From Bdellovibrionia bacterium (GTDB taxonomy: Bacteria; Bdellovibrionota; UBA1018): a stretch of 21,344 nucleotides of DNA. The notes under the pieces are model-generated. The model saw only the letters and a list, made by a program, of their open reading frames with translations, was not told the origin of the DNA and ran no database searches. The position numbers and the translations under genes are program-made. Within the stretch, counting starts at the first letter, position 1. Each line of letters opens with the position of its first letter. Shown piece by piece: positions 629 to 20,454 of this stretch. The stretch is from NCBI GenBank assembly GCA_045805065.1, contig JBJMMA010000026.1, positions 1 through 21,344 of the forward strand, given 5' to 3'.

Positions 629-2125
629 TTATTTCACGCGCCCAACAAACGCGACATCGCCATTCTGTGGATCAGTGACAAGCCCAACAGGCACAACCGA
701 GACAAGCTCGTTCCGTGAGTTCTCGACTTCAGGCACAAACACACGCAGATAGTTTGATGTGTATCCAGCCTGCCAGCGCTCAACGCCTTCAAACTTCGCT
801 AAAAGCTCAGAGGACATTCCTTCAGGACCACGTCCCGCGCGCTCAAGAAGAATTCCATCGAGCGAACCGCCGGTTGCACTCAAAGTCTCAAGCACTTTCT
901 CGTGATGCGTGCGCATGCGAGCAAGGCTCAGCTCATTGAGTTTTCTTGCGCGCTTCACTCTTTCATCCTGACGAACCGATCCCGGAAGACGCGTCGCAGG
1001 CGTTCCTTCGCGCTCGCTGTAGGGGAAAACATGAAGTCTTGTCCAAGGAAGAGCGCTTAAGGCCTCATAACCCCATTCAAATTCAGATTCACTCTCACCT
1101 GGAAATCCCGTGATCACGTCCATCCCAACAAACACGCCGCCCACAGGCGCGCGAAGGGCGGCAATTTTCTTCAGGCATGACTCCACTTGTTCAAAGCCAT
1201 AGCGGCGCTTCATCAGACGCAGCACGCGTGAGTGCGGGCTCTGAAGCGAGACATGGAAATGCGGACAAAAGCGCGGCTCGCGCGCCATGAGATCCAGGAT
1301 CTGATCCGTGATTTCTGTCGGATCCAAAGAGCTTACGCGCAGACGCTCAAGAGAAGTCTCCTGGAGAATCATCTGAAAGAGCTCGCCATGTTGCGCGGTC
1401 TCGGCCCAGTCGGATCCGTAATCACCGATATTGGTTCCTGTGATCACAATCTCGCGGATGCCTTCCGAGATGAGCTTACGAACCTGCTCAATGACTTCAC
1501 GCGGACGCAAAGAACGCGCAGGACCCCGTCCGTAAGGGATGATGCAATAGGTGCAAAACGAGTTGCAGCCTTCTTGAATCTTTAAGAAAGCGCGAGTCTT
1601 GCCCGAGTGACCATCCAGATGCGTCGGCGGCACATGGAAGGCTTCGCCCCCTGCAGGCCATTCGCGATCCATAGGATGCTTGGAGAGAATCTCCTCATAG
1701 CCTTGAGCCGCACCCAGAACCTCGCCCTTGCTTGGGGGGTCTTGCGATGCCGTTTGAGCAATCTTATCGAGGATGATTTCAACAAGCTTTGGCTTATCGC
1801 GATTTCCAATGACGTAATGAATTCCCTTGGATGCCGTCAGACGCTCAGGATCCACTTCAGCAGCGCATCCAGTGACCACCACGCGCGCATTGGGATTATC
1901 GCGTGCAAGCTTTGCTGCCATCTTGCGGCTCTGGCGGTCTGCCTCATCCGTCACGGTGCAGCTATTGACGACGCAAAGAACTGAAGAGTCCTGAGAAGCA
2001 GGGGACGCAAGTGCGCCTGCAGGCAGAGGTTTCCAACCCCTCTTTTGCAACTCAGCTTCAATGAGCTGGCTGTCATAGAAGTTCGCTTTGCAGCCTAAGG
2101 TTTTCAGGACGTAGTATGAATCCAT
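629..2125 (-). CDS. mtaB: tRNA ms2t6A37 methylthiotransferase MtaB (radical SAM, MiaB-like family)
   Basis: UPF0004 N-terminal Cys motifs TLGCKAN, VNSCTVT and TGCAA. Radical SAM motif KIQEGCNSFCTYCIIPYGRG. Also DVITGFPGE, HVFPYSEREGTPA and GYTSNYLRV, all typical of MtaB. Confidence 0.9.
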   Translation of the reverse strand: MDSYYVLKTLGCKANFYDSQLIEAELQKRGWKPLPAGALASPASQDSSVLCVVNSCTVTDEADRQSRKMAAKLARDNPNARVVVTGCAAEVDPERLTASKGIHYVIGNRDKPKLVEIILDKIAQTASQDPPSKGEVLGAAQGYEEILSKHPMDREWPAGGEAFHVPPTHLDGHSGKTRAFLKIQEGCNSFCTYCIIPYGRGPARSLRPREVIEQVRKLISEGIREIVITGTNIGDYGSDWAETAQHGELFQMILQETSLERLRVSSLDPTEITDQILDLMAREPRFCPHFHVSLQSPHSRVLRLMKRRYGFEQVESCLKKIAALRAPVGGVFVGMDVITGFPGESESEFEWGYEALSALPWTRLHVFPYSEREGTPATRLPGSVRQDERVKRARKLNELSLARMRTHHEKVLETLSATGGSLDGILLERAGRGPEGMSSELLAKFEGVERWQAGYTSNYLRVFVPEVENSRNELVSVVPVGLVTDPQNGDVAFVGRVK

Positions 2126-3240
2126 CCCCCCCCCAATACCTCGTTCTCCTGGTAAAAGACAATCGCTTGTCCGGGAAAAAGGGGGCCCTGGCGCTCATCA
2201 AATTCAACATGCGCCGTCTGGTTTTCAAAAAAGGTCAATCGGCAGGCTACCGGAGCTTTTTCAGGCAAAATGCGCCCGAAACAGCGCAAGCCCTTGAGCT
2301 GATGAAGCGCTTTAAGCCAATGAGTTCCAAATATTACACATTCTTTCTTAAGAAGCTGCTCAGGGGTCCCCAGCATCATCCCATGATTAGGAAGATCAAG
2401 TCCCACAACTATAAGCCCTTCTGTACTTACCGCCGTAACCTCAGGCTCCACACGCGCTCCCAGCTGGTAGCGGTGGAGTCCGCGATGCTCACCGATCACT
2501 TGATCATTGCCCGTCTTCATCACGCCCTGAGGCCTGAGTGCAGGAGCAAGGCGGCTCTCCACATAAGGAGCAGTGGCTGAAATATTCGAAAAGCAGATGG
2601 CCTGGGAGTTTGAGAGCACGTCCGAAAAGCCGTACTCGGCTCCAAGCTTACTGACCATGTTTCGTGGGAAATTTCCCAATGGAAGCAGGAGCTTTGAAAG
2701 ATTTTCTTGAGACAGAGTGAAGAGAAACGGGCTTTGATCGCGACTCGAATCACCGGCCTGAAGAAGCTGATAACTTCCCGTTCTTGGATCATGAAAGACT
2801 TGAGCCCCATGCCCTGTTGCTACTTTATCGCAACGAAGCTCAGCAGCTTTCGCAAACAGACTTCCAAGCTTCACTTCGCGATTGCAGGGCACGCAAGGAT
2901 TGGGCGAGTGCCCCAGGGAGCGCTCATGAACCAAGTAATCCAGAACTTTCGCCTGATAGAGCGCTGAGATGTCCGCAACGTGAAACTCAATTCCCAGCGA
3001 TGCCGCGGCTTTTTCAGCATGAGATTTCGCGTTTCCACTGGAGCAATGATTCTCAGTTGCGGAAAGCGCTCCTGGAACCTGAGTCTCAAGATACATTCCC
3101 ACAACGTCATGGCCTTGGGTTTTCAAAAGGGCCGCGGTCACGGCACTATGAATCCCACCGCTGAGTCCCACTAAAACGCGCATCCGCTCGTTTTGCGATT
3201 CATGCTTTTGAGGAGAATAAGATCTGGGTCCTTGGGTCAT
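2104..3240 (-). CDS. mnmA: MnmA/TrmU-family tRNA 2-thiouridylase homolog with divergent motifs
   Basis: RVLVGLSGGIHSAV PP-loop, PNPCVPCNREVK, VATGH, DQSPFL, SQAICF and the C-terminal PGQAIVFY..LGGGWI. Lies downstream of iscS. Several invariant residues are substituted (see findings). Confidence 0.8.
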   Translation of the reverse strand: MTQGPRSYSPQKHESQNERMRVLVGLSGGIHSAVTAALLKTQGHDVVGMYLETQVPGALSATENHCSSGNAKSHAEKAAASLGIEFHVADISALYQAKVLDYLVHERSLGHSPNPCVPCNREVKLGSLFAKAAELRCDKVATGHGAQVFHDPRTGSYQLLQAGDSSRDQSPFLFTLSQENLSKLLLPLGNFPRNMVSKLGAEYGFSDVLSNSQAICFSNISATAPYVESRLAPALRPQGVMKTGNDQVIGEHRGLHRYQLGARVEPEVTAVSTEGLIVVGLDLPNHGMMLGTPEQLLKKECVIFGTHWLKALHQLKGLRCFGRILPEKAPVACRLTFFENQTAHVEFDERQGPLFPGQAIVFYQENEVLGGGWIHTTS

Positions 3241-3249
3241 GACTCTCTT

Positions 3250-4425
3250 TTAATTGGATTTTCTAAGTCTCTGCACACTGGCAGAGAGCGCTTCGATAAA
3301 TCGATTCTGGGTCTCTTCAGATATTTCATCACAAAGCGAGACACGAATCGAGGCCGAAGCGGACCCCTTGGAATGCCCCATCGCCATGAGCACATGGGAA
3401 GGTTCATCGACGCCACTGGAGCATGCAGACCCGGAGCTTACGGCAAAGCCAGCCAGGTCCAGAGCAGGCACGAGTCCTGAGCGGTTAATCCCTTCAAAGC
3501 TCAAGCTCAATGTATTGGCAACTCTCGGAGCTCCAGCGCCGTTGACTTTGACTTCAGAGATTCTACCGAGAATCTCTTTTTCAAGCCTTTCACGAACGGG
3601 TCTTACGCGCGAGTCCCATGGAGCGGGCTTGAGTCGCATCGATGCCTCACCCAGCGAAATAATTCCCGCAAGATTCTCCGTTCCGCCACGTCGCAGGCTT
3701 TCTTGGGTACCTAAAATAACGGGAGAGAGCGCTCCATCAAAATGGAGTGGCGCTTTTGCCTTCCAAAGAACGCCCGTACCTGAGAGCGCGCCGATCTTAT
3801 GGCCCGAAAAACTGACGAACGCGGCGCCAAGCTTTGGAAGATCCAGTTCAAGCTTTCCCCAAGCCTGTGCACCATCCAGATGCAGCGGGATCTTTGCTTG
3901 AGCGGCTTTTTCAGAAAGCTTTTCAACATTACTGATCACGCCCGTCTCGTTGTTCACCCAGATTGCGCTGACAAGTCGCGTAGCTGGAGTAACAAGCTCA
4001 GACAATGCTTGAGCATCCGGTGCGCCGTTTGAGTCAATCGGAAGAAAACTCACGCTCCCCCCACGCTCTTTGGTCCAATCGATCATGCGCAAAGTGGCGT
4101 CATGCTCAACCGGGGTCGTGATCCAATGGGGCTTCTCTCCGCGATGAAACGCGGGCTCAAGAACGGAACGAATCGCAAGCTGCGAGGCCTCGGTTCCGGA
4201 CGATGTGAATGTGATTTGATCGGATGAAGAAGATACTCCGAACGAGCGCGCGACGTTCTCGCGCGCGTCGTTCAGAAGCTTTTTTGCCTCTCGGCCAAAA
4301 GCGTGAATACTGGATGGGTTTGGGAGCAATTCGCTCGAAAGCGCTCGCAAGAGCGCCTCCCGGACCTCAGGCCCTAGAGGCGCTCCCGCGTTCGCATCAA
4401 GATAGGTCGCGAACCTTGGTGACAT
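3250..4425 (-). CDS. iscS: Cysteine desulfurase (IscS/NifS, class V PLP enzyme)
   Basis: YLDANA, NPSSIH, VEH, VNNETG, DGAQ, PLP-lysine motif SGHKIG, RGGTEN and the catalytic loop SSGSACSSG. Confidence 0.93.
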   Translation of the reverse strand: MSPRFATYLDANAGAPLGPEVREALLRALSSELLPNPSSIHAFGREAKKLLNDARENVARSFGVSSSSDQITFTSSGTEASQLAIRSVLEPAFHRGEKPHWITTPVEHDATLRMIDWTKERGGSVSFLPIDSNGAPDAQALSELVTPATRLVSAIWVNNETGVISNVEKLSEKAAQAKIPLHLDGAQAWGKLELDLPKLGAAFVSFSGHKIGALSGTGVLWKAKAPLHFDGALSPVILGTQESLRRGGTENLAGIISLGEASMRLKPAPWDSRVRPVRERLEKEILGRISEVKVNGAGAPRVANTLSLSFEGINRSGLVPALDLAGFAVSSGSACSSGVDEPSHVLMAMGHSKGSASASIRVSLCDEISEETQNRFIEALSASVQRLRKSN

Positions 4426-4912
4426 TCGCTTGGGATGCAGGGATCTGGAAGCCGCTCATATCGAGCGCAGCGCCAGCGGCCTTCGGAAGTTCCTGAGTGC
4501 CGCGAGCCTTGCGGATGAGATCTCCCACGGAAGTCGTGGTGAGATACTCTTGCATGATGAGGCCCAGATTTTCGAAATAGGTCTTGGTCAGAACAAACTC
4601 AACGGTGTCGCTCTTCACATCGCCAGTTCCGATCAGATCGCGAGCTGGGTTGATGTTTTCGCCGACGCTGGTGAGGACATCCTTTACGGAGATCTCATCC
4701 ATCGAACGGGACAGAACATAGCCGCCGCCTGGTCCGCGGACGCTCTTCACGACTGCGCCCTTGCGCAAGCGACGGAAGAGTTGCTCCAAGTAATGCAGAG
4801 AAATCTTTTGACGCTCTGAAATTTCCTGAAGTCGAACAGGGCGACCGTTCGAATTGAAAGTCAGATCCAAAATTGCACGAACGGCGTACCGTCCTTTAGA
4901 AGTTAAACGCAT
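4397..4912 (-). CDS. Rrf2-family transcriptional regulator, IscR-like but with no cysteine
   Basis: MRLTSKGRYAV...ISERQKISLHYLEQLFRRLRK...VKSVRGPGGGY is the IscR/Rrf2 winged helix. First gene of the iscS operon, with a purine-rich SD (AAGGGAGA). No Cys in 171 aa. Confidence 0.9.
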   Translation of the reverse strand: MRLTSKGRYAVRAILDLTFNSNGRPVRLQEISERQKISLHYLEQLFRRLRKGAVVKSVRGPGGGYVLSRSMDEISVKDVLTSVGENINPARDLIGTGDVKSDTVEFVLTKTYFENLGLIMQEYLTTTSVGDLIRKARGTQELPKAAGAALDMSGFQIPASQANVTKVRDLS

Positions 4913-5078: not shown

Positions 5079-5807
5079 ATGGTGACCCCGCCTTCTGGAA
5101 ACAGAAATGATCAACCAAATTCTCCTTTTACCCTCGATAACTTAGGGGGTGATCCGGTTGAAATGCCAAGCGTTACAAAGCTTCTCAACCGCAAGAAACT
5201 GGGGTTGGTTTCCAGTCCTGAAACTAAAACGATTTCAAGACCCCGCTCCGTTTCTACAGCTAGAGCAATCCCAGGACAGCCTCAGATTCAGAAAGTGCAG
5301 CCTCGTAAAGCACGCGCTAAGACCCCTAAAATCGCCTATTGGACACAAGAATCCTTGGCTGCGGCGGATGATACCTTCCAAAAGGCAGTTCACTACCTGA
5401 CTCAAAAAGGTGCGCGCCAGGCGCTTCTTCTTACTCCTCATGATCCCGTCTCTCACAAGCAAAGCAATGCTCGTTTTGATGCGCTTTGTGCGTACATGAC
5501 GGAAGACAAGGAAGAGCTTTGGAGTGGTCTCTCTCTTTCTCCATCTTTGATTCCAGATATCTGGGAAAAACTTTTCACTCAAGGCATCTACGAAATCGTT
5601 CCCAATCTTTCGCAAAAGCATGAGGACGAATCAGCCGCATTTTTGATGCGAGCGTTTGGCCTGAAGGCTACCGAGTTTTTCGTGATTATCCGCTGTGGAT
5701 CGCCCAACGCTTGCACTGGGCTTCTGGCTTTGGTGTCGCCTTTCAGTCTGACCAGGGAAATTGCAGCTGCTTTCAGCGCTCCGAAGAGCGTCGGTCGGGC
5801 CGCGTGA
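5079..5807 (+). CDS. Hypothetical protein (disordered N-terminus, globular C-terminal domain)
   Basis: SD GAGGA about 6 nt before the ATG. 242-aa ORF filling the gap between the Rrf2 gene and tsaE, with a Pro/Ser/Lys-rich N-terminus. Confidence 0.7.
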   Translation: MVTPPSGNRNDQPNSPFTLDNLGGDPVEMPSVTKLLNRKKLGLVSSPETKTISRPRSVSTARAIPGQPQIQKVQPRKARAKTPKIAYWTQESLAAADDTFQKAVHYLTQKGARQALLLTPHDPVSHKQSNARFDALCAYMTEDKEELWSGLSLSPSLIPDIWEKLFTQGIYEIVPNLSQKHEDESAAFLMRAFGLKATEFFVIIRCGSPNACTGLLALVSPFSLTREIAAAFSAPKSVGRAA

Positions 5808-6357
5808 TTTTGATATCCCGAAGGTCTGAGCTCTCGTCTGAAATCGTAAGCTCCACTTTCCAATTCTGACCGGATTTGAGCACCTGCCGCTCAAACTCAG
5901 GCCACATCGAAGTCCATTCGCTCAAGACGATCTTTTGCGAGTCCCAGTAATAGTCGGGAATCCCGCGCTCATCGATCTCCTCTTCGGATCGAATCCGGTA
6001 AAGATCCACATGCACGACACCTCGAATGCTCCGAGCGTTTGCGGACAATGCATACTCATGCGCAATGGCAAACGTGGGACTTCCCTCGGGGGGCTGCTCC
6101 ACGCCTAAGGCTAATAGCAGGTGCCGGGAGAAGGTTGTCTTCCCCGCCCCCATCTGCCCCTCCAAGAGCACGCGATCGCCCACTGAGAGCTCCTGGGCCA
6201 AGCTCTTGGCAAGCCCAGGCAGGTCCTGTTCAGAGCAGCCGCGCTCTTCCTTCCATACTAAGGACGGTTTGAGGTTGCGGGACGTTGGTGACGCCTGTGA
6301 CGCCCGAGGCGACTGCGGTTGGGCTTTGCGGGTGGGCTTTGATTTCTTTGAAGGCAT
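5773..6357 (-). CDS. tsaE: tRNA threonylcarbamoyladenosine biosynthesis ATPase TsaE (YjeE); start uncertain
   Basis: Walker A LEGQMGAGKTTF, SPTFAIAHEY, HVDLYR and EW motifs. Follows nnr/yjeF, as is typical. Confidence 0.9.
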   Translation of the reverse strand: MPSKKSKPTRKAQPQSPRASQASPTSRNLKPSLVWKEERGCSEQDLPGLAKSLAQELSVGDRVLLEGQMGAGKTTFSRHLLLALGVEQPPEGSPTFAIAHEYALSANARSIRGVVHVDLYRIRSEEEIDERGIPDYYWDSQKIVLSEWTSMWPEFERQVLKSGQNWKVELTISDESSDLRDIKITRPDRRSSER

Positions 6358-7897
6358 TGCTGATGTTCTCGATAATATCGGCCGCAGTCATGCTGCGATG
6401 ACCAAACTGTTGAGCTGCAAAATCTCCAGCGACGCTGTGAAGATAAATTCCAAGAAGTGTCGCCTGGAAGGCATCCATTTTCTGACCTAAGAGGCCCCCG
6501 ATCATACCTGAGAGCACGTCGCCGCTTCCAGCAGTTGCCATTCCATCGTTTGGATAATGGTTGAGGTACAAGACATCATCCGGCGAAGTGACAAGCGTTG
6601 CAGCGCCCTTGAGAAGCACGATCGCATGAGTCATGGAGACCGCATCGCGCACGGCTTTCACGGGATCAGAGACTACGACTTCGTTTGAAACGCCCAGGAG
6701 CCTTGCCATCTCGCCTGGATGAGGCGTGAGAACCGTTGGGGCGCGCCGTGCGGCCAGCATTTCGTGAAGCTTATGCGTGGAAATGATATTGAGCGCGTCG
6801 GCATCAATGACCATAGGGCCTTGGTAAATGCTCAAGATCTCTTCGATGACTTGCTGACCTTCAGGGCGCGTTCCAAGACCTGGGCCCACAACGATGCTCG
6901 AATAGGTGTTGAGATTCTTCTTATAGAACTCGTAATCAGGCCCCGAGGTCTTCAGAGGCACAGCCATGGTCTCGCTTGGAAGCTTGATCATGAGCGGCTC
7001 AAAGCCATCTTCCCAGCTTGCGACCGTGACGAGGCCTGTGCCGATCTTATGGCACGCGCGCGCAGCCATGGTGATTGCGCCAATGCGTCCTGGCGTTCCG
7101 CCGACAAGAAGGGTGTGTCCAAAGGAATTCTTGTGGCCGTAAAGATCGCGCTCCGTGAGAAGTCTTCCCATCGGGCCCTTGCGGAGAAGATATTTATCGC
7201 CTTCGTGTTTAAATTTTGGAGGCAGCGAAATATCGACGTTAAAGAGCTCCCCGCGGCGCGCAGCCCCTGGAGGCAGAAAATGACCCAGTTTTGGAAAACC
7301 AAACGAGATCGTCAGATGCGCATGAATGGATGCTCCCACGACGGCGCCTGTATCGCCATTCACGCCGCTTGGAATATCAAGCGCGATGACTTCCTGCGCG
7401 CCCGAGCCATTGATCATTTCAACGACGTCGTAATAAATGCCTTCCAAGCCCCCGCGAAGTCCGGTTCCGATGATTCCATCGACAACCGTGAAGGGGCCGG
7501 GTGAGCTTTGAAAAAAGGATTGAAGATCGGCTGGATTTTCAATGAGGTTCAGGCGCGCTTTCATCGCCTTTAAAATCTGAAAATTCTTCAGTGATGCGCC
7601 TTTATAGCCTGATTCTTCCTGAAGATGGAAAATACGAACCTTGCGATCCAGGCAGAGAAGGCGGCGCGCGACAACGAACGCATCGCCTGCGTTATTACCT
7701 TTACCGGCAAACACCAGGATCTCCGTCGTGCGCCCGGCATGAGGATATTTCTCGGCAATGATTTGAGCGGCAGCGCGTCCTGCGTTCTCCATCAAAACCG
7801 CAGCATCCAGCAGGTACTCCTGCTCAGCCACGCGATCAAGCTCGCGCATCTCACTACTGGTGCAAATCCGCATGGTGTCCCGTGTTTTTTCTTTCAT
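6230..7897 (-). CDS. nnr: Bifunctional NAD(P)HX epimerase/dehydratase Nnr (YjeF)
   Basis: YjeF_N motifs LMENAG, GKGNNAGDA, DGIIGTG and DIPSG. Dehydratase motifs HKNSFG, GPGLG, IDADAL, TPHPGE, LKGA and ATAGSGDVLSG. Confidence 0.95.
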   Translation of the reverse strand: MKEKTRDTMRICTSSEMRELDRVAEQEYLLDAAVLMENAGRAAAQIIAEKYPHAGRTTEILVFAGKGNNAGDAFVVARRLLCLDRKVRIFHLQEESGYKGASLKNFQILKAMKARLNLIENPADLQSFFQSSPGPFTVVDGIIGTGLRGGLEGIYYDVVEMINGSGAQEVIALDIPSGVNGDTGAVVGASIHAHLTISFGFPKLGHFLPPGAARRGELFNVDISLPPKFKHEGDKYLLRKGPMGRLLTERDLYGHKNSFGHTLLVGGTPGRIGAITMAARACHKIGTGLVTVASWEDGFEPLMIKLPSETMAVPLKTSGPDYEFYKKNLNTYSSIVVGPGLGTRPEGQQVIEEILSIYQGPMVIDADALNIISTHKLHEMLAARRAPTVLTPHPGEMARLLGVSNEVVVSDPVKAVRDAVSMTHAIVLLKGAATLVTSPDDVLYLNHYPNDGMATAGSGDVLSGMIGGLLGQKMDAFQATLLGIYLHSVAGDFAAQQFGHRSMTAADIIENISNAFKEIKAHPQSPTAVASGVTGVTNVPQPQTVLSMEGRARLL

Positions 7898-7918
7898 TGG
7901 ATCGATCCTTTTATCTTT

Positions 7919-8689
7919 TTAAGGAGCTCGAATACTGGAAATCATCTCGCGAACGGCCTGGGTCATTCCCACGATGGCTGCGCGACAAACAATGGCGTGA
8001 CCGATATTGTATTCCTCGATCAGTGGAATGCGCTTTCCGTCCAGCGCCGTCTCAAGAGCAGCGGCTGGGCGCACGTTCTCATAATCAAAGCCATGGCCCG
8101 CGTGAGCCCTGAGCCCAAGCTTTCTTGCCATGAGGGCAGCTTTTTCAATTCTCTCAAGCTCGCTCTTTGCTTTCTTGGCAGCTCTTTGACCGGATTTCTC
8201 CTGAGTCGCGATACAATAGCGTCCCGTATGAAGCTCAACCGCATCCGCACCGAGCTCATGAGAAAGCTTGACGGCCTGAACCGAGGGTTCGATGAAGAGG
8301 CTTACTTTGATGCCTGCGCGCTTGAGCTTTTCGATCGCGCCCCCCACCCGCTTTTTGTTTTTAGCGAGATCCAGGCCCCCTTCGGTGGTCACTTCCTGGC
8401 GCTTCTCAGGAACCAGACAACTCCAATCCGGGCGGACGCGGCTTGCGATCTTCACCATCTCTTCTGTTGCGCCCATCTCAAGATTGAGCGGGATCTTGAG
8501 CTCTGCTCTCAAGATCTTTACGTCCGCATCCTGAATATGGCGGCGATCTTCACGAAGATGCACCGTGATCTGATCTCCCCCGGCCTCCTCCACGCAACGC
8601 GCGGCCTCCAGCAGATCCGGATAAGGCGTTCCGCGAAGCTGTCTCAGAGTTGCGACATGATCGATGTTTACGCCTAGCAGAGGAAGCAT
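7919..8689 (-). CDS. pdxJ: Pyridoxine 5'-phosphate synthase
   Basis: LGVNIDHVATLRQ, ITVHLREDRRHI, VPEKRQEVTTEGGLD, ELHTG, HAGHG and EYNIGHAIV. Confidence 0.97.
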   Translation of the reverse strand: MLPLLGVNIDHVATLRQLRGTPYPDLLEAARCVEEAGGDQITVHLREDRRHIQDADVKILRAELKIPLNLEMGATEEMVKIASRVRPDWSCLVPEKRQEVTTEGGLDLAKNKKRVGGAIEKLKRAGIKVSLFIEPSVQAVKLSHELGADAVELHTGRYCIATQEKSGQRAAKKAKSELERIEKAALMARKLGLRAHAGHGFDYENVRPAAALETALDGKRIPLIEEYNIGHAIVCRAAIVGMTQAVREMISSIRAP

Positions 8690-8708
8690 GAGTTTAAGTT
8701 CCTATCGT

Positions 8709-10118
8709 TTATCCCAGAATGCGTTGAATGTTGCTTGCAATGTCTTGCGAAAGCTTCGTGATGACGTCGAGATTTTCGCCCTCAACCATCACGCGAGCCA
8801 GAGGCTCAGTGCCCGAGTAGCGAACAAAGACGCGACCCTTGTTCTTGAGGCTTTCTTCGGCAGCGCGAATCGCCTTTTGAATGCTCTCATGTTGCTCGAG
8901 TGGCTCCTTGCGAGACACGCGAACATCGTTGCGAACTTGTGGAAAGAGTTTGATCTGCTTTTTAAGCTCAGAGAGCGGCTTTCCGGTTCTGCGCATGGCT
9001 TCGAGCACCTTGAGCGCTGCAACAATTCCATCACCCGTCGTCGATTGATCGAGAAACACAACGTGACCGGATTGCTCGCCACCTAAATTGAAGCCATTCT
9101 TTCTCATCGTGTCGACCACGTAGCGATCGCCCACTTGTGCGCGAACCATGGAGATCCCGCGCTCTTTCAAAGTCATCTCCAGGCCGATATTGGACATAGG
9201 CGTTGTGACAACCGTGTTCTTGAGAAGATTTCCTTCTGAAGCCATTTGAAGCGCGCAAAGGCCGATGATCTGATCTCCATCGACAATCTCGCCGTTCTCG
9301 TCAGACAAGATGCAGCGGTCACCATCGCCATCGAGCGAGATCCCGATATCTGCACGATAATGAGCGGTTTCACCCGCAATTTCTTCAGGGTGAAGCGCGC
9401 CGCACTTATCGTTGATATTCAGCCCGTTAGGGCTGACCCCGCGCCGGATGACTTCAGCTCCAAGCTCCTCGAACACAAGAGGCGCCACTTTGTAAGCCGC
9501 ACCATTAGCGCAATCCAGCGCAATACGGACGCCCAAGAGATCCATGTCCTTAGGAAAAAGAGCCTTCAAAAAGACCAAATAGCGCCCATGAACGTCATCA
9601 ATACGGAATGCTTTACCAACAAGATCGCCAGTAGGACGGATCTTATTAATTTCTTGAGTCGTAACGAGACGCTCAATCTCACGCTCAAGCTCGTCGGGAA
9701 GCTTATAGCCATCGGCTGAGAAAATCTTGATTCCGTTGTCTTGAAACGGATTGTGAGATGCGGAGATCATGATTCCGGCATCAGCACGCATGCTTTGCGT
9801 AACAAACGCCACACCCGGCGTTGGCAGCGGGCCGATCAGAACAACGTCTGCTCCCATAGAGCAAATGCCTGAGGCGATCGCGTTTTCAATCATATAGCCC
9901 GAGATACGCGTGTCTTTTCCAACAACAATTCGCGCCCGGCGAATCTGCTTGCTGGATTCCAGGGGCTTCAGACCAATGGGGAGCGAGCTCTTGGCGTTAA
10001 TGAGCGGCGATTGCTGAAGCACATGCGCAACAGCCCGACCAACGGCCATCGCCACTTCGCCCGTCATTGGCCATTCATTGGCCATTCCTCTAATTCCATC
10101 GGTTCCAACTAGCTTCAT
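8709..10118 (-). CDS. glmM: Phosphoglucosamine mutase
   Basis: GTDGIRG, GKDTRISGYM, catalytic SASHNP, metal-binding DGDGDR, GGEQSGH and RYSGTEP. Confidence 0.97.
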   Translation of the reverse strand: MKLVGTDGIRGMANEWPMTGEVAMAVGRAVAHVLQQSPLINAKSSLPIGLKPLESSKQIRRARIVVGKDTRISGYMIENAIASGICSMGADVVLIGPLPTPGVAFVTQSMRADAGIMISASHNPFQDNGIKIFSADGYKLPDELEREIERLVTTQEINKIRPTGDLVGKAFRIDDVHGRYLVFLKALFPKDMDLLGVRIALDCANGAAYKVAPLVFEELGAEVIRRGVSPNGLNINDKCGALHPEEIAGETAHYRADIGISLDGDGDRCILSDENGEIVDGDQIIGLCALQMASEGNLLKNTVVTTPMSNIGLEMTLKERGISMVRAQVGDRYVVDTMRKNGFNLGGEQSGHVVFLDQSTTGDGIVAALKVLEAMRRTGKPLSELKKQIKLFPQVRNDVRVSRKEPLEQHESIQKAIRAAEESLKNKGRVFVRYSGTEPLARVMVEGENLDVITKLSQDIASNIQRILG

Positions 10119-10128
10119 AACTTCTCTC

Positions 10129-11052
10129 TTAATAAAGAGTGACGCCCACTTTTTCGGGGATCACTTTCACCAGTCCCACATCGTCCGGAAGAGTGACTTT
10201 CACTGGTTCCACGTAATGACCTTTGGGCTTCCCGCTCAGATCAATGACCGCATAGACGCGATCCTTATCCAGGGCCTTCAAGCTTTTTGAATCCGCCCTC
10301 ACGAGCACCGTCACGGTTCTCTCGTCTAAGCGGACTTTATAGGAAGACAGAACGCGAATGTCCACGTTCTTGATTCTAAAATTAGGTGCAAGCGGTTGAA
10401 TCTCGATAGCAATTTTTGGAAGCGGCCCATCGAGCTGAACGTTCTGACGCTGAACATCGAGACCTACATCCCGCTCAACCGATTGATGCATTCCGGAGAC
10501 GTCAAAAGGAAGAGTGTTCACTTCCGTGACAGCATCCACGCGGCTTTCAGCGCCTTTGATGCGAACGGTAGGCGGCTTCACTTCCGCTTTCACAATGCGG
10601 TAACCTTCCGGCGGCATTCCCTGAAGCGTTGGACGCACAGGCACTTCGCGGCGTTTCACGTACTCAAGCTTGATGAGGATGGCTGTAGGATTGACCGAGA
10701 GAACTTTCACGCCGATGGGTACGCGAATATTGTCTGAAAAGAAACGATAGGTCACCAGGCCTGGCTTTGCGCCGGCCAAGTTCACGCGAATCGGATCTTC
10801 TCTGCGATCCAAGATGGCGCGCAAGAATGCTTTTGGCCCCGAGAGTCTGAACGCGATGCGATCCGGGATTTCGTTGGATGGAACAATGTCCGCGGGCGTG
10901 ATGACTTCGAGCGGGATTTCTTTTGTGACTTCGACGTTTCGCGATCCCAAAACGACAATCCAAAGCACAATGGCAACGCCTACGGAAATCAGTTTAGTTC
11001 CGATGTTCTGAGTAAAGAAACTCCAGATGTAGGAAAAAAGCTGCTCTAGCAT
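10129..11052 (-). CDS. cdaR: CdaR/YbbR-like regulator of diadenylate cyclase
   Basis: N-terminal membrane anchor (KLISVGVAIVLWIVV) followed by about three YbbR-like repeats (VNLAGAKPG, PPTVRIKG, IDLSGKPKG). Located between cdaA and glmM. Confidence 0.85.
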   Translation of the reverse strand: MLEQLFSYIWSFFTQNIGTKLISVGVAIVLWIVVLGSRNVEVTKEIPLEVITPADIVPSNEIPDRIAFRLSGPKAFLRAILDRREDPIRVNLAGAKPGLVTYRFFSDNIRVPIGVKVLSVNPTAILIKLEYVKRREVPVRPTLQGMPPEGYRIVKAEVKPPTVRIKGAESRVDAVTEVNTLPFDVSGMHQSVERDVGLDVQRQNVQLDGPLPKIAIEIQPLAPNFRIKNVDIRVLSSYKVRLDERTVTVLVRADSKSLKALDKDRVYAVIDLSGKPKGHYVEPVKVTLPDDVGLVKVIPEKVGVTLY

Positions 11053-11055
11053 CGT

Positions 11056-11916
11056 CTAACTCGCACCCCGGCCGTTATGACTTCCGCCACGCGCGGCGCC
11101 ACGCTGATTGAGCCAGTTTCTGAGCTTTCTTGGCAGCCCGCTCTGGCTTCGTGAAATATCCAAAAGCGCAGAGAGGCTTTGACGAATCTCCTGCTCAGAG
11201 AGATTGGTCGTGATCTTGCCGTTCTTAACAAGATGGGCTTCACCGGCTTCTTCCGACACGAGCACAACGATTGCGTCGGAGTCTTCCGTGATCCCAAGAG
11301 CTGCGCGATGGCGCGTGCCGTAGCGCTTATCAATGTTTGGATCTTTGGAGAGTGGCAAAAAGCAGCCCGCGGCTTCAATGCGGCCTTCGCGAATGATGAC
11401 CGCACCATCGTGAATGGGGCTTGAGGGAACGAAGATCGCGTACAAGAGCTCGGCTTTGACTTTCGATTCCAGGCGAGAGCCCGTATCGATGAAATTCTTC
11501 AGGCCCGTCTCACGCTCAATGACAAAGAGGGCGCCGATTCGCTCGTTCGCGAGGCGCGTTGCCGCGCGCGCGATTTCATCGACCATCTCACGCTCTTCTT
11601 CGGCTGAGGCTGATGAGAAGAACGGGTTTTTGCCCACATGCGTGAGCGCGCGTCTCAAGTCATCTTGAAACAGCACGATCACGATGAGGATCAGATAATC
11701 AAAGAAATACGACAGGAGCCAATGTGTCGTGAAAAGCTCAAGCGTTGAGGACAGGAAAAAGCCAATCCCAAGAATACCGAGTCCAGTCAGCATCTGCATC
11801 GCGCGCGTACCGCGGATGAGAAGCAGGATTCGGTAGACGATGAACGCCACGATGCCCACGTCGAGCAGGTCGATCAACCGAAGGCTCGATTGGAGATTAC
11901 GGATTAGATCTCCCAC
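11056..11916 (-). CDS. cdaA: Membrane-bound diadenylate cyclase CdaA/DacA
   Basis: Three N-terminal TM helices, FQDDLRRAL, catalytic HDGAVII and GTRHRAALG, and VSEE. GTG start. Confidence 0.95.
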   Translation of the reverse strand: MGDLIRNLQSSLRLIDLLDVGIVAFIVYRILLLIRGTRAMQMLTGLGILGIGFFLSSTLELFTTHWLLSYFFDYLILIVIVLFQDDLRRALTHVGKNPFFSSASAEEEREMVDEIARAATRLANERIGALFVIERETGLKNFIDTGSRLESKVKAELLYAIFVPSSPIHDGAVIIREGRIEAAGCFLPLSKDPNIDKRYGTRHRAALGITEDSDAIVVLVSEEAGEAHLVKNGKITTNLSEQEIRQSLSALLDISRSQSGLPRKLRNWLNQRGAARGGSHNGRGAS

Positions 11917-14001: not shown

Positions 14002-15033
14002 CTATTTTTCTTTGCCATTTCCCCGGCTTACCGACTGTATTTTTCGCTCCAGCGTCCAGCGCTCTGTCGCTCGCTGCGGCGCATCTCTTTTTCGGTCCAT
14101 TTTTGATTCAATGTGTCGAGTAAGCTTCCATCCTCCTGGAAGATCGATCTCGCTTTGTTGATTCAGGATCGCTTCCAGGTGTGGCCTTCGTCCTCGAATG
14201 CCAGCGGCCTGAAACAAAATCTCGGGTCCTACTTCACTCTGACCGAATTCGTCAGCTACCCCAGAACCCTGACCCGGAGCCCGAAGAGGAGCTTGAACAG
14301 AAGCTTGAGCCGCAAGGCCCAGCTTCACCAGATGTTCCATGGCCTTTGGAAAAATCTTCTCTACCGTGGGCACAAGTTCTGATCTGATTCTCGCTCTTAA
14401 GAATCTGGGATCTAAATTGCTTTCGTCAATTCGGTACTTTTGTTTCTCTTCTTTTAAATATTTTAAGAGCGTCGATTTTCTTTGAGTGAGAAACGGTCTG
14501 AGTTCTACTCCATGCCGCACCGCAATGCCGCCGCCGTGGGTTTGCGAAGCTCCCGTGAAAAGTCTCCAAAGCAAGGTTTCGGCAAGATCATCGGCTTGAT
14601 GAGCGGTCAGGACGATCGCTTCATGCTTCTCAGCGGCCTCCTTAAAGAAAGCCTTTCGGGCGTCGCGGGCGACTTCTTCCCAGGACCTGCCTTGGTAGGT
14701 TTCATTGATGGCAGGCGCCTTGAGCTTCTTGATTTCAAGCGGAACATCCCAGCGCTTGGCAAAGGCCTTCACAAAGCGAGCGTCCTCGACTGACTTTTCC
14801 CGCCAGCCATGGTCCACATGAAGCAGCCTGATCCCCCCCTTGGGTGCGATCCTCCTGCCGTACTTTATAAGGAGGTGCGCGAGCGCGACTGAGTCCGGGC
14901 CGCCCGACAATCCGATAAGGATATGCGAAGTAATAGGGAGTTCAATGTTCTGCCTTTTAAGGAAGCCAATGACATCCCGGATTAATCGCCCGCCGACTTC
15001 GCCTGGCCGTGGATATGCGCTTTTTTGGAGCAT
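14002..15033 (-). CDS. tilS: tRNA(Ile)-lysidine synthetase, short form
   Basis: GLSGGPDS, HVDHGWR, EEVARDAR, TAHQADDLAET, RPFL and DESN...RARIR. Upstream of ftsH. ATG 15033 is preferred over the longer ORF start at 15078. Confidence 0.88.
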   Translation of the reverse strand: MLQKSAYPRPGEVGGRLIRDVIGFLKRQNIELPITSHILIGLSGGPDSVALAHLLIKYGRRIAPKGGIRLLHVDHGWREKSVEDARFVKAFAKRWDVPLEIKKLKAPAINETYQGRSWEEVARDARKAFFKEAAEKHEAIVLTAHQADDLAETLLWRLFTGASQTHGGGIAVRHGVELRPFLTQRKSTLLKYLKEEKQKYRIDESNLDPRFLRARIRSELVPTVEKIFPKAMEHLVKLGLAAQASVQAPLRAPGQGSGVADEFGQSEVGPEILFQAAGIRGRRPHLEAILNQQSEIDLPGGWKLTRHIESKMDRKRDAPQRATERWTLERKIQSVSRGNGKEK

Positions 15034-15150
15034 TAAGGTAAACGAGATTAACTCTGCCGCTTTAAGAAACGCAATCAAGATTAGAAATCAGTCGCCTGAC
15101 CTCTTGACCATGAGATTAGTTCAGTCTATTAGTCTAACTCTCGCAAACGT

Positions 15151-15339: not shown

Positions 15340-16995
15340 ATGAGACTCGGAAAACTTTGGATCGTAGTTGGAGTGCTCTTTACTTGCCCCTATGGGTTTG
15401 CAGAAGCACCTCCTAGCTGCATAAACGCTCAGCCGGCCGGGCCCTTCACTGGCGGGAAGTTTATCCCCGCAACCACGTCGAGGCTCGTATTCCGCCTTGC
15501 CGAGTCGAAGGTTTTCGAGGATGGAAGCCTGAACTTCGACGCGAACGTTTACGAGACTGGAACAATCGAAAATCAAGGGAGCAAACTTTCCACCCTTACT
15601 GCTGTAGTCAGCGTGGACGAGCAAATGGCAGGAGGGGAGACAGCGTACATGGCGGTTCGATACGCCGCAAAGAATGGATCTGTTTTACATCTGACCCCTC
15701 TTGATTTTCAGGTTCCCGAAGGGCCGGTCTACACAGCATTTTTCAAAAGCATCGAGAAGAAATTAGAAACAATCTACAAAGCACCCACTACCCTCAGTTC
15801 TGCTCCTATCAGTGGACTCAGTCTGCCAAAATGTAAGCTCCGCACGCCCCATGAGACCTGGATCCTTCAGGCCCGCAGCCTGCCTCTGTCCAAGAGCATG
15901 CACCCAGTGAAGCTGGGCCCGGAGAACGCCTCACTCAAAGATGAGTCTTTGTGGACCGGCGGTGACATGGATCCTCTGCTTTATGTGAAAACCCCGGATC
16001 AGGTTTACATTGGATACTCGACTGAGCGCCCTTACGCATTTGAACATGCTGGGAACAAATACCGATGCTCGACTGAACCCAGCAAAAGAGATCCGACGAC
16101 AGAGCAGGAACGACACCGCATTGCATACGGAGTTTCTGATAAGGATCTCAAGTTACTTTGGACCGATCCAGTATTTGGGGCGGTTTACCAACCTCAGGGC
16201 AAATCGGCTGAACGAGAGTTGGCGGATTTCCGCAAGCGCTACGACTACAATTACGATCTGGTTGCTAAAGACAGCAGAATCATCGCTCCTTCTGAGCCAG
16301 CTCCAGCCCCAAAGCTCAGCGTCACTGACCTCAACGCAAAAATCCCAGTCGTCTACGTCAAGGATTCATTTTCAAGGTATTATCGTTGCACCGCTGACAA
16401 TTTGATTCCGGATATCAGTCGCTTCGTTGAACCGCTGATTTATATCTATTCCGGCAATAAGGAACGAGTCACGGTTTCGCTTGGACCTGAAGTAAAAATC
16501 ATGGGTGCCGATCCTGAGCCCATTAAGAACTCATGGGAAGTGAACACGGATTCCAAAGGACACATGAGAGTGGACGGAGCTCGTGCGTACCGCTCGCTTT
16601 TCTGGGAGGGGCGCGGCCCGGATTTTCCAGCGCCGCCTACCGCCGGAGTCGTGTTGGAGCGCGATCAAGTTGAAACCTATCTTTCGAAACAACTCCCCTG
16701 CCTGGGCCTTCGAGGACGGGAGGTCACGGAGTTCATCCACTACTGGGCGCCAGTTCTGAAACAACATCCGGCAGTACTGATTGATTTTATCTTGAATCAC
16801 GAGGTCGAGCGTTTCGCGCCGCTGATTACGTCACGCCCCATGAAGAAGATCCGCGTCTATCTCAACTATCGTCCGCTTGCTCCATTTGACGACAAGGGCT
16901 TCCCGCGAAAACACTTCCCTACTCTGTCAAGACCGGAAGACAATCTTCTCATCGAGTGGGGCGGAATCCATTGGGCCGATTCGGAGCTTCGCTAA
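15340..16995 (+). CDS. Secreted protein with a C-terminal 'KPVIYLYP...EWGG'-type domain of unknown function
   Basis: SD GGGGAG and a signal-peptide-like N-terminus. C-terminal motifs EPLIYIYS, YRSLFWEG, LGLRGREVTEFIHYWAP, APL..IRVYL and IEWGG match a widespread uncharacterised family, recognised from memory. Confidence 0.8.
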   Translation: MRLGKLWIVVGVLFTCPYGFAEAPPSCINAQPAGPFTGGKFIPATTSRLVFRLAESKVFEDGSLNFDANVYETGTIENQGSKLSTLTAVVSVDEQMAGGETAYMAVRYAAKNGSVLHLTPLDFQVPEGPVYTAFFKSIEKKLETIYKAPTTLSSAPISGLSLPKCKLRTPHETWILQARSLPLSKSMHPVKLGPENASLKDESLWTGGDMDPLLYVKTPDQVYIGYSTERPYAFEHAGNKYRCSTEPSKRDPTTEQERHRIAYGVSDKDLKLLWTDPVFGAVYQPQGKSAERELADFRKRYDYNYDLVAKDSRIIAPSEPAPAPKLSVTDLNAKIPVVYVKDSFSRYYRCTADNLIPDISRFVEPLIYIYSGNKERVTVSLGPEVKIMGADPEPIKNSWEVNTDSKGHMRVDGARAYRSLFWEGRGPDFPAPPTAGVVLERDQVETYLSKQLPCLGLRGREVTEFIHYWAPVLKQHPAVLIDFILNHEVERFAPLITSRPMKKIRVYLNYRPLAPFDDKGFPRKHFPTLSRPEDNLLIEWGGIHWADSELR

Positions 16996-17864
16996 TCCTG
17001 ATTCTGACACTGGTGGCAACGGCCTCTGCAGCTGAAGATTCGGCTGAATCCTGCCGCGAGTGTCACAAAAGCCAGTATACCGAATGGACAGGATCAAGAC
17101 ATCACGCTGCTTATGACAACCCGATCTTTCAGAGGGGTCATCGCAGGGATCCAATTCTGCGCTGTATAACCTGCCACACGCCGACGGATGAGCAACGAGG
17201 TGCTATCGAGGAACATCAGGACACTCCGCTCATTCACGAGGGGGTCACTTGCGTCAGCTGCCACTTGGATGGACATTCCAGCGGCTCGAAATATCTAAAG
17301 GAGCCTGAACTGTGCGCACGTTGTCATCAGTTCAAGTTTCTTCGCGGAGGCGAGTTCGCCCAGCGTACCTACTCTGAATGGCAAGCCTACCGAAAACAAG
17401 GTGGCACAAAAACATGCCAGGACTGCCACATGCCCGGCGGATCACACTCATTCTTAGGTGGGCACTCATTGAAGAAGCTGAGAAAAGCCCTTCAGATCCG
17501 TTGGTCAAAGAATTCGGAGGCCGCTGTTGTCTGGATCAAGAACGTAGGCGCGGGTCATGACGTTCCAACCGGAGATGTCTTTCGAGAATTAAAAGTAGAA
17601 GTGAAAGAACGAGGAAAAAGCTTTTATAAACCGGTTACTTCAATAGGCCGAAATCCTTTCTTCCGGTCAGTCAACGGTGACTCGGTCCTAGCGTGGAAAA
17701 ACAACAATGCGCTTCGGCCTGGGGAAGAGCGCAAAATTCTGATCAAGGTGAAGCATCCGGTGAGCGTGCGGGTCATCTACTACTATGAGGGACGAATACC
17801 CGAACTTGATCTCCTCGATGGCGATCAGCTAGCCCATTTAGTTGTCGCCGAGAAAAAGTACTGA
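16956..17864 (+). CDS. Exported multiheme c-type cytochrome (5 CXXCH, c554-like N-terminus)
   Basis: Signal peptide (ILILTLVATASA). Heme motifs CRECH, CITCH, CVSCH, CARCH and CQDCH. Y.EW..S.H follows heme 1, and the C-terminal region carries NVGAGHDVPTGD..R. Start is GTG 16956 or TTG 16971. Confidence 0.9.
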   Translation: MGRNPLGRFGASLILILTLVATASAAEDSAESCRECHKSQYTEWTGSRHHAAYDNPIFQRGHRRDPILRCITCHTPTDEQRGAIEEHQDTPLIHEGVTCVSCHLDGHSSGSKYLKEPELCARCHQFKFLRGGEFAQRTYSEWQAYRKQGGTKTCQDCHMPGGSHSFLGGHSLKKLRKALQIRWSKNSEAAVVWIKNVGAGHDVPTGDVFRELKVEVKERGKSFYKPVTSIGRNPFFRSVNGDSVLAWKNNNALRPGEERKILIKVKHPVSVRVIYYYEGRIPELDLLDGDQLAHLVVAEKKY

Positions 17865-19061: not shown

Positions 19062-19543
19062 TTCTCTCGTCTCTTATGCGCGGCTTCGACTGCGGCTTGA
19101 ATTCTTTTCTCACGTGTCTCGGGTTTTGCCGCCTCATCAATGCGTCTTAAGATAAAACTTTTTTGTCCATTAGGCACAGCCTCAAAATCCTTCAGCACTC
19201 CTTCGGCTTTCAGGGCACTCATCAAGTCCTTGGGAATGGAGACCTCAGCAGTCCGATCGCGAACCGTAATCTGAACCCGGACGCGATCCCCTTCCTTGAT
19301 CTTTGTCGCCTTACGGATCTCGGCTTTGACTCGAATATTATGCCGTCCTCCTCCGACTGGATACAGACTGATGAGAAAAGGCTTCGAATTATTGACCGTG
19401 GCCATGACTGGAACAGGCCCCTTCGTTCCCAGGGCCAAGGTAATCTTGGCTGGGACGGGGATCCCAAAATACTCCAGTTCATCCGAGATGCGTTCTAATT
19501 TGGACTGAAACGAAAGCTGCTTTTCTGCTGGAGGACGTTTCAT
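19058..19543 (-). CDS. DUF1905 plus YdeI/OmdA-associated domain protein
   Basis: GPVPVMATVN...SLYPVGGGRHNIRVKAEIRK..IKEGDRVRV is DUF1905-like. IPKDLMSAL...IDEAAKPETREKRI is OmdA-like. Confidence 0.85.
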   Translation of the reverse strand: MKRPPAEKQLSFQSKLERISDELEYFGIPVPAKITLALGTKGPVPVMATVNNSKPFLISLYPVGGGRHNIRVKAEIRKATKIKEGDRVRVQITVRDRTAEVSIPKDLMSALKAEGVLKDFEAVPNGQKSFILRRIDEAAKPETREKRIQAAVEAAHKRREK

Positions 19544-20298
19544 AGAGTTTTAGCTTTCTTTGCCACCCATTTACGAAACTCAGAATTGACATCATCAATT
19601 CCACAAAAAGTGCCTAGATACTTTTCAAGCTTCTTTCCAACCGAAAGCTGCAAAAGCTGATCAAGCGAACAATGAGACGCAATCATTTCAACGAGCGCTT
19701 GTGATGCCTGATAGTGATAGCGCGCACCATTGGTTGCGACACCCATGAATGGATGATTGAGCGTCAGCACATCAATGGAAGGCTGAGTTGCAAGCCAGGC
19801 GTAGTCAACACTCCAATGAGATTGATCCAAAGCGGCTTTTCCTTTTTTCACCAAAGGCTGATGGTTAGAAAGAGAGTTAGCAAGCCCTTCCTCAAGCCAC
19901 TTTGGAACAGCGCCTTTATACTTCTGAAAAAGAATCACGTGCACAAGCTCATGTCCAAAAACGGACTCAAAATTAGTTTCAGACACACGTGGGCCAAGAT
20001 GAACGGAATTATCGCTCTTTCGGGAAAACGCCAGCACGCTGTCATCGTAGCCATGAGTTTGCCGAAACTCCTGCTGATCCAGATGCCAGACCAGTCGAAC
20101 TTTTCGAATATCCCACTCCAGCTTCGATTGAATCCGCTCGACTACGCGGTTCACTAGCGCTGGCTTGAGCCACGCTGGAGCATCATCGCAACGGACTTCA
20201 TTGGTATCGACGACTGCGGCGCGAGCCTGGGTCATGACCAAGCCAACGAGCAAGAAAAACAAGTGGCGCTTTACACCCAGCGCTTGAGCTCTTATCAT
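19540..20298 (-). CDS. Secreted zincin metallopeptidase-like protein (peptidase MA clan)
   Basis: Signal peptide ending ARA. HEXXH motif GHELVH followed by PKWLEEGLA, which supplies the gluzincin third ligand. Confidence 0.8.
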   Translation of the reverse strand: MIRAQALGVKRHLFFLLVGLVMTQARAAVVDTNEVRCDDAPAWLKPALVNRVVERIQSKLEWDIRKVRLVWHLDQQEFRQTHGYDDSVLAFSRKSDNSVHLGPRVSETNFESVFGHELVHVILFQKYKGAVPKWLEEGLANSLSNHQPLVKKGKAALDQSHWSVDYAWLATQPSIDVLTLNHPFMGVATNGARYHYQASQALVEMIASHCSLDQLLQLSVGKKLEKYLGTFCGIDDVNSEFRKWVAKKAKTL

Positions 20299-20412: not shown

Positions 20413-20454
20413 GTTTTGACCTCACATTACAAAAAACAAGGAGCACCTGTCTTG

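Follow-up and report, generated by a model that had tools for sequence, protein, structure and literature searches.

The window analysed here, a stretch of 21,344 nucleotides (nt) covering positions 1 to 21,344 of contig JBJMMA010000026.1 (GenBank assembly GCA_045805065.1, Bdellovibrionia bacterium), contains a tight operon of four genes on the minus strand, the third of which encodes a degenerate C-type paralog of MnmA, the bacterial enzyme of 2-thiouridine synthesis at tRNA position 34 (s2U34). The first gene encodes an Rrf2/IscR-like regulator (4397..4912, minus strand; PF02082, 103 bits; TIGR00738, 115 bits with a cut-off of 73.3). It is followed by a NifS/IscS-like cysteine desulfurase (3250..4425, minus strand; PF00266, 187 bits), whose best NCBIfam matches are NifS/IscS models, all below their equivalog cut-offs. 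The MnmA-like gene (2104..3240, minus strand; 378 amino acids (aa); Pfam PF03054 and PF20258) lies directly downstream of the NifS-like gene with a gap of 9 nt. The last gene encodes MtaB (629..2125, minus strand; TIGR01579, 374 bits with a cut-off of 357), the methylthiotransferase that forms 2-methylthio-N6-threonylcarbamoyladenosine at position 37 (ms2t6A37), and the first 22 nt of its frame, counted from the ATG, overlap the MnmA-like gene.

The MnmA-like open reading frame (ORF) starts with ATG, has no internal stop and no frameshift, and aligns with solved MnmA chains over residues 15-375. All the motif strings quoted in an earlier reading of the DNA (hereafter the sequence-only reading) were located at the expected codons of the gene, on the minus strand. 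The PP-loop reads SGGIHS (3145..3162), with His31 at the position of the Asp of active MnmAs. The next motif, TGHGAQ (2800..2817), retains TGH and has Gly for the canonical Tyr (Tyr145); close homologs read TGHG or TGHR throughout. RDQSPFL (2722..2742), PRNMVS (2650..2667), LSNSQAICF (2590..2616), YQLGARVEP (2443..2469) and GPLFPGQ (2167..2187) stand for altered forms of KDQSY, KxxVR, DSQ, YTIGQR and RAITPGQ, respectively. The consensus TGHYAR given there for comparison was right about the Tyr-to-Gly change and wrong in its final residue, as the canonical copies of this group read TGHYAQ. The report of an intact Cys triad in a full-length ORF was borne out: Cys116 and Cys119 form CVPC, the CxxC of C-type MnmA (2884..2895, minus strand), and the distal Cys216, the third of the cluster or persulfide cysteines, lies in ICF (2593..2595, minus strand). 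The CVPC is invariant in a clade alignment of 12 rows, and Cys216 in both homolog alignments. The first Cys motif of C-type MnmA is represented by a single Cys (NHCSS), with CC in the homologs P0010 and P0011; active C-type variants lacking the CC motif are noted by Shigi et al. in their account of the enzyme (PMC7025502).

In order to place these changes, 15 MnmAs that are the sole copy of their genome and lie in the same operon, and 18 D-type MnmAs (DxxC), all from relatives, were used as a reference set. There are 78 positions at which the two groups have the same residue with a conservation of 90% or higher. The window protein deviates at 28 of them, a divergence beyond chance, and D31H, Y145G, K167R, Y171P, K193R, R197S, D211N, T259Q, Q262A, R325L and R352G are among the changes. 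Judging from their conservation, some of the changed residues probably contact ATP or tRNA. The degenerate copies give no sign of an overall decrease in RNA-binding charge: net charge and the number of Lys plus Arg residues are alike in the 19 degenerate, the 15 sole-copy and the 18 D-type proteins. Within this set, the window protein and its counterpart in the sister species G001 have the fewest Lys plus Arg residues, 31-32 versus about 42. At the 3' end of the gene, nine consecutive G of the coding strand (2126-2134) encode the conserved C-terminal GGGW and directly precede the overlapping mtaB ATG; this slippage-prone homopolymer could double as a ribosome-binding site.

A protein search returned homologs at 56-89% identity (P0001-P0009), two at 43-44% (P0010 and P0011) and others at about 40% and below, with source names that read "tRNA-specific 2-thiouridylase" by automatic annotation. 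In the clade alignment, ten of the rows are full-length (43-89% identity) and cover position 31, which is His in 8/10 and Phe in 2/10. The sequence-only reading had asked whether the His of SGGxHS is conserved; the loss of the Asp is common to all ten rows. The alignment shows no variation in the Cys triad, SGG..S, ATGH.AQ, RDQS and LPLGNFP, nor in GQ.IVFY...E.LGGGWI at the C-terminus. Mean pairwise identity is 0.62 in the N-terminal domain, 0.43 in the central and 0.63 in the C-terminal domain, and 98/357 columns are invariant over residues 20-376 of the ten members (66/196 in the N-terminal domain). The substitutions might have been an artefact of assembly or sequencing, or a recent lesion specific to the strain, as the sequence-only reading had allowed; because they are common to G001 (68% aa identity) and ten database homologs, and no frameshift or stop is present, there is virtually no chance of this. 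Contigs from four soil-metagenome runs cover the gene in fragments only, and one of 201 nt (3082-3282) spans the PP-loop codons with no differences, although it may stem from the source sample. Single-protein scans of genome and metagenome contigs for the DNA of close homologs retrieved no relatives, and the only match above 30% identity in an alignment-based metagenome scan was a fragment of 29 residues (L088, 55%), not a full-length relative.

The family assignment of the protein is that of a divergent MnmA. Pfam searches recovered the HUP domain PF03054 (170 bits) and the C-terminal barrel PF20258 (52 bits), both above cut-off, and the central PRC-barrel PF20259 falls short (16.4 bits versus a cut-off of 27). 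The scores for NF001138 (270 bits, cut-off 284) and TIGR00420 (231.2 bits, cut-off 236.95) are also below threshold, and so are those of the G001 copy (272.2 and 230.9, respectively). By comparison, a sole-copy operon MnmA scores 433.8 bits and passes the equivalog cut-off. Among the hallmarks of MnmA membership, the (C/D)xxC with the distal Cys is present, and SGGIHS lacks the Asp of SxGxDS. An AlphaFold2 model built with an alignment of 80 rows has a mean predicted local distance difference test score (pLDDT) of 91.0 and a predicted template modelling score (pTM) of 0.89. Foldseek aligned this model with Streptococcus pneumoniae MnmA (2hma) and the Escherichia coli MnmA-tRNA complexes (2der, 2det and 2deu) at TM scores of 0.80-0.87, and the superposition on 2hma, 2der and 2deu (0.81-0.87) spans 366-376 columns. 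In the model, then, the three-domain MnmA fold (HUP, PRC-barrel and C-terminal beta-barrel) is retained. Complex predictions of the MnmA-like protein with MtaB (run scores 0.39, 0.00 and 0.00) point neither way.

The sequence-only reading had also left room for this gene being the only mnmA of its genome. A family search of the source genome (G000; assembly 94% complete) instead identified another MnmA gene, located on contig C90, with 277 bits for the HUP domain versus 172 for the window copy. It is a D-type protein of 411 aa with PF03054/PF20258-type domains as in the window copy, to which it is 31% identical over the full length, and it reads SGGVDS, PNPDILCN, TGHYAQ, KDQSYF, KKDSTGICF, YTLGQRKGL and RAVTPGQ. 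It passes both equivalog models (472.6 bits for NF001138 and 436.8 for TIGR00420) and very probably makes s2U34. Regarding sulfur supply, a separate IscS-IscU pair is encoded on contig C13, so the NifS of the operon is an extra, dedicated desulfurase. No desulfurase match was found within about 4-4.5 kb on either side of the D-type gene. The 94%-complete assembly gave no match for SufBD or for TusA (PF01206), the one Tus protein searched for. MnmA forms s2U34 with ATP on tRNA-Glu, -Gln and -Lys; ARAGORN identified 44 tRNAs on all source contigs, including tRNA-Glu(UUC) and tRNA-Gln(UUG). The only tRNA-Lys identified has the CUU anticodon, and the assembly, 94% complete, yielded no tRNA-Lys(UUU).

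Comparison with related genomes was used to follow the state of the operon gene. Forty relatives were searched with the window protein, of which 36 matched, and all 56 matched places were compared; four genomes (G011, G013, G020 and G040, 72-89% complete) gave no MnmA match with this query. The order Rrf2-NifS-MnmA-MtaB is kept throughout the matched relatives, save for the absence of NifS in three genomes, and is conserved across the taxonomic order. The Rrf2-MnmA-MtaB operons concerned are L026 (G008), L043 (G009) and L034 (G027), and exactly these genomes have a second MnmA of C-type rather than D-type, the one of G027 apparently without the distal Cys. Fifteen genomes have one MnmA, and in 15/15 it is the operon copy and a canonical C-type protein, reading SGGVDS, PNPCxxCN, TGHY, KDQ[ST]YF, DSQxICF, YTxGQ[RK] and AITxGQ. 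Twenty genomes, including the source genome, have two MnmAs, the second being D-type in 17 and C-type in 3, and the operon copy is altered in 20/20. Its PP-loop reads SGGIHS, SGDVDS, SGGPES, SGGVNS, SGRADS, SGSAHS, SGGPSS, SGGVAS, GGGGAS, SGGSKS, SGGPKS or GSSVAS, and some degenerate copies retain SGGxDS with other motifs gone. None of the 19 full-length degenerate copies retains D211 or T259; the Cys triad is kept in 17/19 and the PP-loop Asp in 8/19. Of the remaining genomes, G015 (86% complete) has a D-type copy only, and G037 (64% complete) a partial degenerate operon copy only.

A wider sample was obtained by a protein scan with Rrf2, which gave 80 loci. Of these, 22 fall on contigs that had been analysed before, and 69 have an operon MnmA. 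Scored for seven canonical motifs, 19 of these proteins have 7/7 and 18 have 0/7, with neither PP-loop nor cysteines; the rest are intermediate, and for the three that end at a contig edge the score is a lower bound. Degeneration is thus graded, from mild changes to complete loss of the PP-loop and the cysteines. A full-length intact ORF occupies the MnmA position in 69/70 operons that reach far enough, and the CxxxCxxC of the radical S-adenosylmethionine domain of MtaB is kept in most loci. In the L132 operon (5480-8738), which reads Rrf2-NifS-MtaB, the MnmA-like gene is cleanly absent, NifS ending at 7208 and the MtaB frame opening at 7212; the single, canonical MnmA of that genome lies outside the operon. 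One degenerate operon copy is in a locus (L126) recorded as Bacteriovorax stolpii, which suggests a cultivable relative for a genetic test of its role.

The expected association was then examined with PF03054 in 20 genomes unused before. Operon copies with 7/7 motifs came with a single MnmA match in 5/5 genomes. Those with 0/7 came with two matches in 5/5: the operon copy scored 43-66 bits, and the other, a canonical MnmA at a different location, 259-268 bits. Intermediate copies came with two MnmAs in 4/5 genomes, the exception (G054) having a degenerate copy only (124 bits). The genomes of L102 and L095 have two MnmAs each, and those of L106 and L109 (G056 and G057) have two high-scoring ones each, with 252/266 and 248/267 bits. 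The operon copies of L106 and L109 are near-canonical with slight changes (YTIGKK, AMAPGQ) and may mark the beginning of such degeneration. Altogether, a canonical operon copy goes with a single MnmA in 20/20 genomes, and a non-canonical one with a second, canonical MnmA in 33/35, the two exceptions being G037, which is 64% complete, and G054, a genome of unstated completeness. Motif loss in the operon gene therefore tracks MnmA redundancy across the group.

Phylogenetic analysis placed the D-type copies in one clade with a support of 100 (MnmA tree, two partial rows dropped). In the same tree, the end branches of operon copies from two-copy genomes measure 0.8-3.9, versus about 0.2-0.5 for sole-copy operon genes. 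On the MtaB tree the one-copy/two-copy state needs nine changes, of which well supported branches force at least four; the four independent contrasts on such branches all go in the expected direction (4/4; sign test, p = 0.125). The link between degeneration of the operon copy and a second MnmA is strong as a description, but it is phylogenetically clustered and statistically unestablished.

The long end branches and the graded motif loss are what would be seen if the operon copy were a functionless relic of displacement by the D-type enzyme, kept by its position between nifS and mtaB, by translational coupling and by the overlap with mtaB. The clean loss of the gene in L132 and the 22-nt overlap fit this idea as well. 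Selection on the gene tells otherwise. In the one pair available, the source genome and G001, dN/dS (nonsynonymous over synonymous substitution rates) is 0.12-0.15 for the operon MnmA (dN 0.229), 0.13-0.15 for NifS, 0.035-0.09 for MtaB, 0.03-0.06 for the D-type MnmA (dN 0.07) and 0.02 for Rrf2, ratios that are rough because dS between the two genomes is near saturation (1.5-1.9; 1.2-2.1 over all of these genes but Rrf2, at 0.35). The dN of the D-type copy is about three-fold below that of the operon copy, whose dN/dS is nonetheless far from neutrality and indicates purifying selection, answering a question that the sequence-only reading had posed. A relic would be expected near a ratio of 1, and neither the intact frames in 69/70 operons nor the 98/357 columns invariant across ten clade members agree with it. 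Moreover, position in the operon would constrain the 3' end only and not 1.1 kb of frame. With its fold, three cysteines, conserved N-terminal domain and purifying selection, the operon copy is no decaying pseudogene, and a functionless relic is improbable.

Alternatively, the protein could be an active, Fe-S-dependent s2U34 isozyme fed by NifS, perhaps for certain tRNAs or conditions, with His31 replacing Asp in ATP/Mg binding. Purifying selection, the full MnmA fold of the model, and the invariance of the Cys triad, SGG..S, TGH and DQS in the clade would all be expected of an enzyme. The gene immediately upstream encodes a desulfurase, an arrangement known from yrvO-mnmA, and the L106 and L109 genomes, with two near-canonical copies each, suggest that two active MnmAs can coexist. 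These points are outweighed by others. The PP-loop Asp is described as strictly conserved in both MnmA types, and the D13A variant of Thermus thermophilus MnmA, the one C-type enzyme in which this residue has been examined, is reported to retain its Fe-S cluster while thiolation is abolished (PMC7025502). Because residue 31 is Phe in two clade members, and Phe is no chemical substitute for Asp, this position has probably given up any acidic or metal-binding function. The 28 changes at 78 universal positions include the basic residues of KxxVR, the Tyr of KDQSY, YTIGQR and R325/R352, the scores lie under the equivalog cut-offs, and the operon gene decays as far as total motif loss wherever a second MnmA exists. 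We therefore consider an active isozyme unlikely.

A different partnership is suggested by the superfamily precedent of Ctu2, a diverged paralog of Ctu1 that is described in PMC10067955 as necessary in vivo and as devoid of the cysteines that bind the cluster. By analogy, the operon copy could be a non-catalytic Ctu2/Ncs2-like subunit that pairs with the D-type MnmA and positions the tRNA, and the co-occurrence of degenerate copies with a canonical MnmA in 33/35 genomes is compatible with this. Simple redundancy, however, predicts the same co-occurrence. The operon gene has nifS and mtaB as its neighbours rather than the D-type gene, and a canonical MnmA with no operon copy found beside it occurs in G015 (86% complete) and in the L132 genome. 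Bacterial MnmA is not known to need a partner subunit. Such a pairing is highly improbable here.

The reading that we favour, with a probability of about 0.6, is that the operon copy is a displaced C-type MnmA that has lost U34 adenylation and is retained for a non-adenylating role. According to this proposal, the MnmA of the conserved Rrf2-NifS-MnmA-MtaB operon would originally have been a C-type, [4Fe-4S]-dependent enzyme. The D-type MnmA on contig C90, a canonical enzyme, would have taken over s2U34, and the operon copy would then have lost the adenylation step, a loss that its altered PP-loop suggests. In T. thermophilus MnmA the [4Fe-4S] ligands are given as Cys105 and Cys108, equivalent to the CxxC of the window copy, and Cys200 (PMC7025502). 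Since the corresponding cysteines are kept, the window copy may still bind a cluster or accept sulfur from the adjacent NifS-like desulfurase. Its role would then probably be an accessory one in the handling of Fe-S or sulfur together with NifS and MtaB and not the thiolation of U34, for example to deliver sulfide or a cluster to MtaB, or to bind the anticodon loop of its tRNA; the auxiliary cluster of MtaB needs external sulfide in the mechanism summarised in PMC5372745. That the operon copy serves MtaB is speculative. The idea of a pseudo-enzyme put forward by the sequence-only reading fits the loss of the PP-loop Asp, the inactivity of T. thermophilus D13A and the tracking of motif loss with a second MnmA; its companion ideas of an Fe-S or sulfur carrier for MtaB or a thiotransferase with another substrate are conjectural.

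Several observations weigh against the displaced, non-adenylating copy that we favour. The N-terminal domain, including S27, G28, G29, S32, TGH and DQS, is conserved in the clade to the degree seen in active MnmAs, and retained catalysis would fit this conservation. Because the operon gene of distant relatives has lost all three cysteines (18/69), a sulfur or cluster role is not the general reason for its retention, and because the L132 operon does without it, an MnmA-like gene at this position can be dispensable. To these are added the degenerate copies without a second MnmA in G037 and G054, the near-saturated single pair behind the selection estimates and the phylogenetic clustering of the association. 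A more specific claim extends to the Bacteriovoracia and Oligoflexia, in which the MnmA encoded between nifS and mtaB would have become non-adenylating on repeated occasions, after another MnmA had taken charge of s2U34. In lineages such as this one it would keep its [4Fe-4S] site and serve MtaB, either as a dedicated donor of sulfide or cluster that is charged by NifS or as an adaptor for the anticodon loop; we regard this combination as doubtful. A bolder variant, in which the operon copy is an eraser that removes the sulfur of s2U34 with the help of its cluster and without ATP (a desulfidase), is speculative.

MnmA is regarded as a uniform, near-universal bacterial enzyme. The genomes compared here represent a whole bacterial group with MnmA-fold proteins that very probably no longer thiolate tRNA and are kept under selection beside a desulfurase and MtaB. 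Such genes should not be counted as s2U34 capacity. They also form a natural series, from an intact enzyme through an Fe-S site without the adenylation motif to the loss of all motifs, which can serve to tell cluster binding apart from adenylation, two functions still debated for E. coli MnmA in the discussions of PMC8053098 and PMC11784392. The operon copy may also be an accessory factor of MtaB, with a bearing on the unsettled question of where MtaB obtains its sulfur; if the donor or adaptor role were true, it would identify a missing sulfur-supply partner of methylthiotransferases.

Regarding the rest of the window, the Rrf2/IscR-like regulator has 99% aa identity to that of the sister species and 80-93% across the 80 loci of the phylum, and is much better conserved than its operon partners. 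A gene for TsaE, involved in the synthesis of N6-threonylcarbamoyladenosine at position 37 (t6A37), is located at 5773..6357 (minus strand; PF02367), just upstream of the operon with the t6A37-methylthiolating MtaB, and a TilS-like PP-loop protein is encoded at 14002..15078 (minus strand; PF01171); both are further genes of tRNA anticodon-loop modification. An ordinary cluster of cdaA (DAC domain), ybbR/cdaR and a glmM-like phosphomutase, then FtsH, occupies 8709..11916 (minus strand). Four ORFs of 183-551 aa, at 5079-5807 (plus strand), 15340-16995 (plus strand), 19540-20298 (minus strand) and 20416-20967 (plus strand), match no Pfam family at E<=1e-5, and a multihaem cytochrome c-like ORF (16956-17864) is preceded by the one of 551 aa.

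A literature search by title and term listing found no degenerate bacterial MnmA paralog or MnmA "pseudoenzyme", and the window copy can be compared with four better-known systems. The C-type MnmA of T. thermophilus (PMC7025502) is alike in its three-domain fold, in the CxxC with a distal Cys and in having Cys at the first CC motif. The window copy differs from it in the His for the PP-loop Asp, the Gly for the Tyr of TGHY, the single Cys for the CC doublet, the 28/78 changed positions and the scores under cut-off. Compared with the D-type MnmA of its own genome, which has all canonical motifs, it has CxxC rather than DxxC. Ctu2/Ncs2, as presented in PMC10067955, is likewise a degenerate PP-loop paralog of a U34 thiolase that coexists with a catalytic paralog and has long been retained; in contrast, it lacks the cluster cysteines that the window copy keeps and belongs to a different PP-loop subfamily, and the gene of the window copy is linked with nifS and mtaB. 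In Bacillus subtilis, finally, yrvO lies upstream of mnmA, and YrvO and MnmA are reported to suffice for 2-thiouridine formation (PMC5372745). The window operon shares with that pair a dedicated IscS-like desulfurase directly upstream, an Rrf2 regulator as the first gene and a genome in which TusA was not found. The B. subtilis pair is presumably preceded by cymR. Unlike the B. subtilis arrangement, the adjacent MnmA is degenerate here, the canonical one is encoded elsewhere, and MtaB is part of the operon.

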